Positions 45,412-48,410 of a DNA stretch of 64,000 nt are shown piece after piece. Below the pieces are notes generated by a model. That model was not told the origin of the DNA and did no database searches. It saw only the letters and a list, made by a program, of their open reading frames with translations. The DNA is taken from contig JBLLNR010000005.1 of NCBI GenBank assembly GCA_048058875.1, positions 48,615 through 112,614 on the forward strand, given 5' to 3'. How positions within the stretch are numbered: position 1 is the first letter of the stretch; every line of letters begins with the position of its first letter. This DNA is from Methylotenera sp. (GTDB lineage Bacteria > Pseudomonadota > Gammaproteobacteria > Burkholderiales > Methylophilaceae). A program made the translations under genes and the position numbers.

Positions 45412-48410
45412 ATAGGATCAAGCCTCACGAGCAATTAGTATCAGTTAGCTTCACCCCTTACAGGGCTTCCACACCTGACCTATCAACGTCCTGGTCTAGA
45501 ACGACTCTTCAGGGGGGTTATACCCCCAGGGAAATCTCATCTCAAGGCGAGTTTCACGCTTAGATGCTTTCAGCGTTTATCTCTTCCACACTTAGCTACC
45601 CGGCGATACCACTGGCGTGATAACCGGTGCACCAGAGGTGTGTCCACTCCGGTCCTCTCGTACTAGGAGCAGGTCCCTTCAAATTTCCAGCGCCCACGGC
45701 AGATAGGGACCAAACTGTCTCACGACGTTTTAAACCCAGCTCACGTACCACTTTAAATGGCGAACAGCCATACCCTTGGGACCGGCTACAGCCCCAGGAT
45801 GTGATGAGCCGACATCGAGGTGCCAAACTCCCCCGTCGATATGAACTCTTGGGAGGAATCAGCCTGTTATCCCCAGAGTACCTTTTATCCGTTGAGCGAT
45901 GGCCCTTCCATACAGAACCACCGGATCACTATGACCTGCTTTCGCACCTGCTCGACCTGTCCGTCTCGCAGTCAAGCAACCTTTTGCCATTGCACTATCA
46001 GTACGATTTCCGACCGTACCTAGGTTACCTTCGCACTCCTCCGTTACTCTTTGGGAGGAGACCGCCCCAGTCAAACTGCCCACCATACACGGTCCCCGAT
46101 CCAGATAATGGACCTAGGTTAGAACCTCAACAACATCAGGGTGGTATTTCAAGGTCGACTCCATAAGAACTAGCGTCCCTATCTCAACGTCTCCCACCTA
46201 TCCTACACAAATCCTGTCAAAGTCCAATGTAAAGCTACAGTAAAGGTTCATGGGGTCTTTCCGTCTAGCCGCGGGTAGATTGCATCTTCACAACCACTTC
46301 AACTTCGCTGAGTCCCGAGAGGAGACAGTGTGGCCATCGTTACGCCATTCGTGCGGGTCGGAACTTACCCGACAAGGAATTTCGCTACCTTAGGACCGTT
46401 ATAGTTACGGCCGCCGTTTACTGGGACTTCAATCAAGAGCTTGCACCCCATCATTTAATCTTCCAGCACCGGGCAGGCGTCACACCCTATACGTCCACTT
46501 TCGTGTTAGCAGAGTGCTATGTTTTTATTAAACAGTCGCAGCCACCTTTTCACTGCAACCCCATCATGCTCCAAGAGTAAATCTCTTCACACTACCGGGG
46601 CGCACCTTCTCCCGAAGTTACGGTGCTATTTTGCCGAGTTCCTTCTCTCGAGTTCTCTCAAGCGCCTTAGAATTCTCATCCTGCCCACCTGTGTCGGTTT
46701 GCGGTACGGTCTTATACAACTGAAGCTTAGTGGCTTTTCTTGGAAGCATGGTATCAATCACTTCGTCTACAAGTAGACTCGTTATCACGTCTCGGTCTTA
46801 GCTCTCCGGATTTGCCTAAAGAACCAACCTACTCGCTTGAACCGGGACATCCAACACCCGGCTGACCTAACCTTCTCCGTCCCCACATCGCATTGTATAG
46901 AGGTACAGGAATATTAACCTGTTTCCCATCAGCTACGCATCTCTGCCTCACCTTAGGGGCCGACTCACCCTGCGCCGATGAACGTTGCGCAGGAAACCTT
47001 GGGCTTTCGGCGAGGGGGCTTTTCACCCCCTTTATCGCTACTCATGTCAGCATTCGCACTTCTGATACCTCCAGCATGCCTCACAGCACACCTTCGCAGG
47101 CCTACAGAACGCTCTCCTACCATGCGCATACTCATTTAAAAACACTCCTAAATCGAAACCTCACGGCTCGACTTTGATGAAACGCTTTGTTACGTCAAAC
47201 ATAAATGTTTGTGCAACAGCTTCATCGAATGCACTTAAAAGAGTATGCGCATCCGAAGCTTCGGTTACGTGCTTAGCCCCGTTACATCTTCCGCGCAGGA
47301 CGACTCGACCAGTGAGCTATTACGCTTTCTTTAAAGGATGGCTGCTTCTAAGCCAACCTCCTGGCTGTCTGTGCCTTCCCACTTCGTTTTCCACTTAGCA
47401 CGTCATTTGGGACCTTAGCTGTCGGTCTGGGTTGTTTCCCTCTTGACTACGGACGTTAGCACCCGCAGTCTGTCTCCCGTAATTGCATTTCTCGGTATTC
47501 GGAGTTTGCAATGGTTTGGTAAGTACTTATGCACCCCCTAGCCATAACAGTGCTCTACCCCCGAGAATGATATACGAGGCACTACCTAAATAGTTTTCGG
47601 AGAGAACCAGCTATCTCCAAGTTTGTTTAGCCTTTCACCCCTATCCACAGCTCATCCCCAAATTTTTCAACATTTGTGGGTTCGGACCTCCAGTACCTGT
47701 TACGGCACCTTCATCCTGGCCATGGATAGATCACTTGGTTTCGGGTCTACACCCAGCAACTGAATGCCCTATTCGGACTCGCTTTCGCTACGCCTCCCCT
47801 ATCGGTTAAGCTTGCTACTGAATGTAAGTCGCTGACCCATTATACAAAAGGTACGCAGTCACGGAACAAGTCCGCTCCCACTGTTTGTATGCATACGGTT
47901 TCAGGATCTATTTCACTCCCCTCCCGGGGTTCTTTTCGCCTTTCCCTCACGGTACTAGTTCACTATCGGTCGATTACGAGTATTTAGCCTTGGAGGATGG
48001 TCCCCCCATGTTCAGACAAGGTTTCTCGTGCCCCGCCCTACTTGTCGTTATCCTAGTTCCACACACGGGATTTCGTATAAGGGGCTATCACCCTCTATGG
48101 CCGGACTTTCCATTCCGTTCTACTATCGCATGTGCTAAAAATAACAGGCTGTTCCGTGTTCGCTCGCCACTACTTACGGAATCTCGGTTGATTTCTTTTC
48201 CTCGAGCTACTTAGATGTTTCAGTTCACTCGGTTTGCCACCATCTCCCTATATATTCAGGAGCGGTTACCCTTGCGGGTGGGTTTCCCCATTCGGACATC
48301 TCCGGATCAAAGCTTATTTGCCAGCTCCCCGAAGCTTTTCGCAGACTATCACGTCCTTCATCGCCTGTAATCGCCAAGGCATCCACCATATGCACTTATT
48401 CACTTGACCC
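45412..48410 (-). rRNA. rrl: 23S rRNA (ends +/-10 nt), about 3.0 kb because of a helix-45 insertion
   Basis: The 5' end reads GGTCAAGTGAATAAGTGCATATGGTGGATGCCTTGGCG and the 3' end reads ..TACTAATTGCTCGTGAGGCTTGATCC. Conserved blocks were seen throughout, e.g. GGATAACAGGCTGAT and GACGGAAAGACCCCATGAACC. Confidence 0.95.
47122..47252 (-). other. Intervening-sequence-like expansion of 23S helix 45
   Basis: ATGCGCATACTC (47122-47133) and GAGTATGCGCAT (47241-47252) form a perfect 12-bp stem enclosing ~107 nt of AT-rich non-conserved sequence. The site is ~1160-1290 nt from the 23S 5' end, between the conserved CCGAAGCT and GGTAGGAGAGCGTTCTGTAGG blocks. E. coli has only a ~20-nt hairpin there. Confidence 0.7.

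Follow-up and report, generated by a model that had tools for sequence, protein, structure and literature searches.

An ORF-less intervening sequence in helix 45 of the 23S rRNA genes of a member of the Methylophilaceae

Location of the insertion within the rrn operon

The window, i.e. the whole 64,000-nt stretch of Methylotenera sp. DNA that was analysed, contains an rrn operon of ordinary layout, in which Rfam places the 5S gene after the 23S rRNA gene, and the 16S gene together with two spacer tRNAs upstream of it. The two tRNA genes in the 16S-23S spacer are accompanied by another just upstream of the 16S gene (48807-48971 and 51023-51096, respectively). An earlier note on this DNA had described a 23S gene of approximately 3.0 kb that is extended at helix 45 by a 131-nt element with a perfect 12-bp inverted repeat, and had read this element as an intervening sequence (IVS). 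The Rfam match indeed covers 2996 nt, the coordinates given for the element (47122-47252) are right, and the repeat is present in the sequence, the motifs being written in the RNA sense and the gene lying on the minus strand. The features concerned are the following:

45414..48409, minus strand: 23S rRNA gene, 2996 nt (Rfam RF02541, LSU_rRNA_bacteria, 2806 bits, full model 1-2925)
47122..47252, minus strand: whole helix-45 element, comprising the native 8-bp stem and the intervening sequence (131 nt, rRNA positions 1158-1288)
47130..47238, minus strand: net insertion of 109 nt against the bacterial LSU model, with the coordinates as given by the alignment

The conserved 23S blocks named in the earlier note directly flank the insert on both sides, and the 131-nt element is bounded by the 12-bp repeat, ATGCGCATACTC / GAGTATGCGCAT. 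The outer 8 bp of this repeat correspond to the native helix-45 stem of the LSU model, and the true insertion therefore amounts to about 109-113 nt. Alignment to the Rfam model, a check that the earlier note had proposed, places 109 inserted bases between RF02541 positions 1218 and 1219, that is, in the apical loop of helix 45, and pairwise alignment with the 23S gene of a genome of the same genus (G020) gives an insertion of 113 nt. This insert is the only indel of more than 1 nt between the two genes, and no insertion was found at helix 25, which the note had considered normal. The insert is AT-rich relative to the 23S gene, with a GC content of 38.9%; the remainder of the gene has 51.1% and the window 42.7%.

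Copies in the genome and homologous inserts in other genera

The genome (2.19 Mb in 33 contigs, 85% complete) holds three 23S copies on three contigs (C5, C7 and C28), and the comparison of all rrn copies suggested in the earlier note found the element, unchanged, in each of them. Over the 23S stretches that were compared, which span up to 501 nt around helix 45, the three copies show 100% identity, and this indicates efficient homogenisation of the insert among the operons. A genome-wide similarity search returned no copy of the insert outside these three 23S genes.

Homologues are rare. A scan for the conserved blocks of the element across one genome per species (185,579 species) produced matches in only two other genomes, G352 and G222, which belong to two other genera; the records matched are the closed 1.69-Mb chromosome of "Methylophilaceae bacterium RH-M32" and a MAG of an "uncultured beta proteobacterium". 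Both genomes possess an element of 131 or 134 nt at the same site, in two rrn copies each; in RH-M32 (record OZ271852.1) the insert measures 134 nt. The identity to the window element is 73.7% for G352 and 73.5% for G222, and the two are 77.9% identical to one another. The same motif scan applied to metagenomes added one further contig, a variant of the G352 type with one base different in the stretch compared, and neither scan returned anything beyond Methylophilaceae-type records. No homologue was present in 400 sampled genomes of the order, nor in 400 sampled genomes of the class, where just chance-level matches of 21-23 nt were obtained.

The terminal inverted repeats and the AT-richness of the insert might bring to mind a mobile element, an intron or an assembly artefact, such as a MITE-like repeat, a self-splicing intron or a chimeric join within the rRNA gene. 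This reading is effectively refuted. For a MITE or dispersed repeat, one would look for matches elsewhere; the sole genomic matches are the three 23S copies, and collections of plasmids and phages contain no match to the insert. As regards group I and group II introns, 131 nt is too small for either, and Rfam yields no intron match: at the gathering score the element matches no family other than LSU, and a search with the insert alone at E <= 10 returns just chance-level matches (E > 1). Finally, the agreement of three contigs, combined with the homologue in the closed chromosome of another strain, argues that the insert is not a quirk of the assembly.

Fold of the element and its conservation

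The element with short flanks folds at -63 kcal/mol, as compared to -37.1 ± 3.6 kcal/mol for shuffled sequences (z = -7.2), and none of 200 shuffles folds as well. The minimum-free-energy fold is Y-shaped, with a basal rod leading into a three-way junction from which two arms emerge. In the window copy the rod has 26 positions per strand (24 bp and two U.U mismatches), corresponding to ~2.4 helical turns. The parts of the fold are distributed as follows:

47227..47252, minus strand: basal rod, 5' strand (element positions 1-26); 25 consensus pairs, 2 of them changing on both sides; putative RNase III substrate
47122..47147, minus strand: basal rod, 3' strand (element positions 106-131)
47176..47226, minus strand: arm A, a long stacked hairpin that leaves the three-way junction; 5 of 19 pairs (helices 2 and 3) change on both sides
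47150..47174, minus strand: arm B, a short hairpin that comes after the AAAGUCGAG block, which is invariant in all homologues

Every homologue, when folded on its own, adopts the same Y shape. The consensus fold of four homologous sequences contains 46 pairs, with standard pairs in 98.4% of cells. Seven of these pairs keep their pairing through two-sided changes; five of the seven belong to arm A and its base, and the other two to the basal rod. The values of this consensus fold were not reached by any of 500 shuffles, and sliding the partners by 1-3 columns, as a control, left zero two-sided compensatory changes. Since the four sequences include only three independent ones, the covariation is to be taken as good qualitative support and not as a statistic. 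The basal rod is conserved across the three genera together with the junction blocks (CTCTTTTAAGTGCATTCGATG, CAAAGCG and AAAGTCGAG), which are invariant, and both arms have diverged. Arm A is the most variable part of the element and holds most of the covariation, and the arm-B stem is poorly alignable between homologues, with only two consensus pairs located there. As judged from these alignments, then, compensatory changes have preserved the fold in the homologues of the two other genera.

Distribution among relatives and other inserts at helix 45

Nine relatives with an assembled 23S gene were compared, of which one belongs to the same genus, two to the same family and six to the same order; in all nine, the same pair of anchors encloses a helix-45 hairpin of 18-27 nt. 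The closest of the comparisons is with G020, the same-genus genome introduced above, the 23S of which is 98.45% identical to that of the window over 2846 aligned positions and carries an 18-nt hairpin in place of the insert. Within the family, the helix-45 region of the 23S gene is assembled in 95 of 361 genomes, and at least five of these 95 have a long helix 45, namely the window genome, G352, G222, G346 and G119; the other flank pairs among the matches listed lie 0-19 nt apart. Among these listed matches, approximately 40 of the 95 genomes are without second-flank coordinates, and a non-homologous insert is possible in some of them. The small number of long helices 45 among the matches listed for the 95 family genomes, together with the 18-nt hairpin of G020, excludes a lineage-wide extension of the helix, which the earlier note had named as the alternative to an IVS. 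The sporadic distribution expected of IVSs is what is observed, the insert being absent from the near-identical 23S of G020 and from nearly all other Methylophilaceae genomes in which this region is assembled.

Two of the carriers possess inserts of other types. In G346, a genome of the same genus as G352, the helix-45 element measures 167 nt (L058:1632-1798); its outer 11 positions per strand match those of the window element and the similarity of the 3' strand continues further in, but its interior, at about 40% identity, is unrelated. Its genus-mate G352, with the 131-nt type, has an outer stem different from that of G346. This pattern suggests a modular exchange of the interior on a shared rod. 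The insert of G119, which belongs to another genus of the family, is 462 nt long (L059:376-837), has no sequence relation to the window element, and holds a reading frame for the PF05635 "23S rRNA-intervening sequence protein" (70.3 bits). The frame is broken into two pieces, the N-terminal one of 35 aa and the C-terminal one of 80 aa; tandem CAGAAGA heptamers are found in the complementary arms of the insert. By its sequence features, this insert is of the Coxiella/Leptospira type. With three insert types at one site, helix 45 in the Methylophilaceae has been hit repeatedly, by different elements.

Identity of the element

An IVS is an extra stem of 100-200 nt in the 23S rRNA that is excised by RNase III, the fragmented rRNA still being functional (PMC8708148); the usual sites are helices 9, 25 and 45, occurrence is sporadic, and the pieces are not re-ligated (PMC4990558; PMC2672173). 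In the window element, the extra sequence replaces the small apical loop of helix 45, and the complementary ends give an extended, stable stem-loop, as evident from the basal rod, the z-score and the covariation. The interval 47122-47252 contains no ORF, which separates the element from the ORF-bearing PF05635 (S23p) IVSs, a class represented among the genomes compared by G119. The reading put forward in the earlier note thus holds with respect to site, architecture, sporadic occurrence, lack of an ORF and presence of an RNase III gene, and by every test that the sequences allow here the element is a classical ORF-less helix-45 IVS.

Our literature search found no paper joining the Methylophilaceae with a 23S IVS and none mentioning strain RH-M32; for betaproteobacteria and 23S IVSs, no IVS-discussing paper among those listed mentions betaproteobacteria. 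IVSs have, however, been reported from Taylorella, also a betaproteobacterium, and we therefore make no claim of a first for this group. Given that the phenomenon has been textbook knowledge since 1990, what is described here is an ordinary IVS element, seen in a new bacterial family, the Methylophilaceae.

Origin of the insert

Even the closest of its known homologues share only about 74% identity with the insert, whereas the 23S backbone of G020 is near-identical and does not carry it. Furthermore, the two most similar inserts (those of G352 and G222) are located in comparatively distant backbones, and the outer stem of G346 is one that it has in common with the window and not with its genus-mate G352. 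Such a patchy distribution suggests that the insert has been gained or lost through recombination between conserved flanks, and a recombinational or horizontal origin has been proposed for IVSs generally (PMC4990558). The few sequences at hand fit a history of gain and loss by recombination through conserved 23S flanks, in which the donors would be lineages not yet sampled. The flanks are ~86% identical for G352 and G346 and roughly 98% identical near helix 45 in other family genomes; the ~86% values may suffer from alignment in variable regions, and no argument for transfer is built on them.

RNase III and the proposed processing of the 23S rRNA

The window also encodes, ~12 kb from the rrn operon, the enzyme that would be expected to act on the element; the earlier note had observed that an rnc gene is present:

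61627..62310, minus strand: rnc, RNase III (227 aa), putative processing enzyme (PF14622, 120.5 bits; PF00636, 85.3 bits; dsrm PF00035, 58.8 bits)
60746..63537, minus strand: lepB (Peptidase_S26), rnc and an era-like gene for a GTPase with a KH domain, in a row

The rnc gene is intact, with both the catalytic domain and the dsRNA-binding domain, and its neighbours give the usual conserved lepB-rnc-era arrangement. An rnc gene is likewise present in all other insert carriers checked (G352, G222, G346 and G119).

Those helix-45 IVSs that have been tested are substrates of RNase III (PMC4990558). From the rod as a substrate, the intact rnc gene and a consistent IVS literature, we infer that excision takes place within the rod; by analogy, we consider it likely, at a probability of roughly 80%, that RNase III excises the insert and leaves the 23S rRNA fragmented. 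The analogy is drawn from the IVSs of Salmonella, Leptospira, Coxiella and the alphaproteobacteria. The insert would be transcribed inside the 23S precursor, and in the course of ribosome assembly RNase III would cleave the basal rod on both strands; the fragment released would then be degraded and the rRNA ends would not be re-joined. The mature 23S rRNA would be made up of two pieces, a 5' one of about 1.16-1.18 kb and a 3' one of about 1.71-1.73 kb, the exact cleavage positions not being predictable from sequence, and the two pieces would be held in the 50S subunit by RNA-RNA and RNA-protein contacts. Since the insert occurs in all three copies, essentially all cellular 23S rRNA would be fragmented. 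Public sequencing runs offered no reads for this question: the insert's own words occurred in none of the 24 runs returned, and the best share, 0.54, is what the conserved flanks alone produce, which says nothing on expression, excision or habitat.

The stem-loop may instead be transcribed and remain uncut, in which case it would extend helix 45 in a lineage-specific manner and face the solvent on the 50S subunit. Retention of this kind would be viable, given that E. coli ribosomes function even when an IVS stays unprocessed (Gregory et al. 1996, as cited in PMC8708148). In addition, the junction blocks do not differ between genera, unlike the arms, and this could stem from a role in the mature particle. 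However, a near-perfect rod of 26 positions is the kind of structure that RNase III cuts in every characterised case, the rnc gene is intact, and the insert is dispensable, as G020 with its 98.45%-identical 23S does without it; we regard retention, therefore, as rather improbable. It is considerably less probable still that the main excising enzyme is a different nuclease, such as RNase E/G or a trimming exonuclease, and that RNase III is dispensable. Divergent processing of a 5' 23S rRNA IVS in alphaproteobacteria is on record (Zahn et al. 2000, as cited in PMC8708148), but the precedent at helix 45 is one of RNase III substrates, as mentioned above, and a long double-stranded stem suits RNase III and not single-strand-specific enzymes.

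The rod and junction blocks are invariant across the three genera, the arms have diverged and co-vary, and G346 keeps much of the rod around a different interior. This pattern leads us to mention, as a speculation to which we assign little probability, that the insert may be more than a spacer to be discarded, rod and junction forming a selected module, either as a signal for processing that at the same time helps the insert to spread horizontally by recombination, or because the excised RNA or a retained ribosomal extension has a function of its own.

Comparison with known intervening sequences

The closest counterparts are those helix-45 IVSs without an ORF that are known from Salmonella enterica and Yersinia enterocolitica (Burgin et al. 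1990; Skurnik & Toivanen 1991; cited after PMC8708148 and PMC4990558). According to these citing papers, they occupy the same site, measure ~100 nt, have a stem formed by complementary ends and lack an ORF, all as in the window element, and they too are sporadic among close relatives and found in hosts with RNase III. A relation in sequence is not apparent, in that no similarity emerged from the 400-genome sample of the class or from the motif scan, both of which are indirect comparisons and not pairwise ones. Furthermore, the Salmonella IVS is not present in all operons (PMC4990558), whereas the window genome carries its element in all rrn copies; excision of the window element is proposed by analogy, and its host is, unlike Salmonella and Yersinia, a free-living methylotroph of the Methylophilaceae.

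The ORF-bearing IVSs of Coxiella burnetii and Leptospira (S23p / PF05635) are found in the same helix and have the same stem-bounded design and a proposed horizontal origin (PMC4990558). They are 430-460 nt long and encode a protein, in contrast to the 131-nt window element without an ORF; an insert of their type is present at the same site in G119. The helix-9 IVSs of the Alphaproteobacteria are likewise extra 23S stem-loops whose removal leaves a fragmented rRNA (Evguenieva-Hackenberg & Klug 2000, as cited in PMC4990558). These belong to another helix and another class of bacteria, and their processing can involve more steps (Zahn et al. 2000, as cited in PMC8708148).

Implications for the Methylophilaceae

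The understanding of IVSs is unchanged by this element, which has modest practical consequences and is of minor evolutionary significance. Should the insert be excised, total RNA of the window organism and of the cultured carrier RH-M32 would be without an intact 23S band, and such RNA would score as degraded on RNA-integrity measures. 23S probes, primers and alignments for the Methylophilaceae must allow for 110-460 extra bases at helix 45. With three insert types at one rRNA site in a single family, one of which is common to three genera and has its fold kept by compensatory changes, the Methylophilaceae offer a few sequences with which to compare the ways such inserts spread and the requirements of RNase III.
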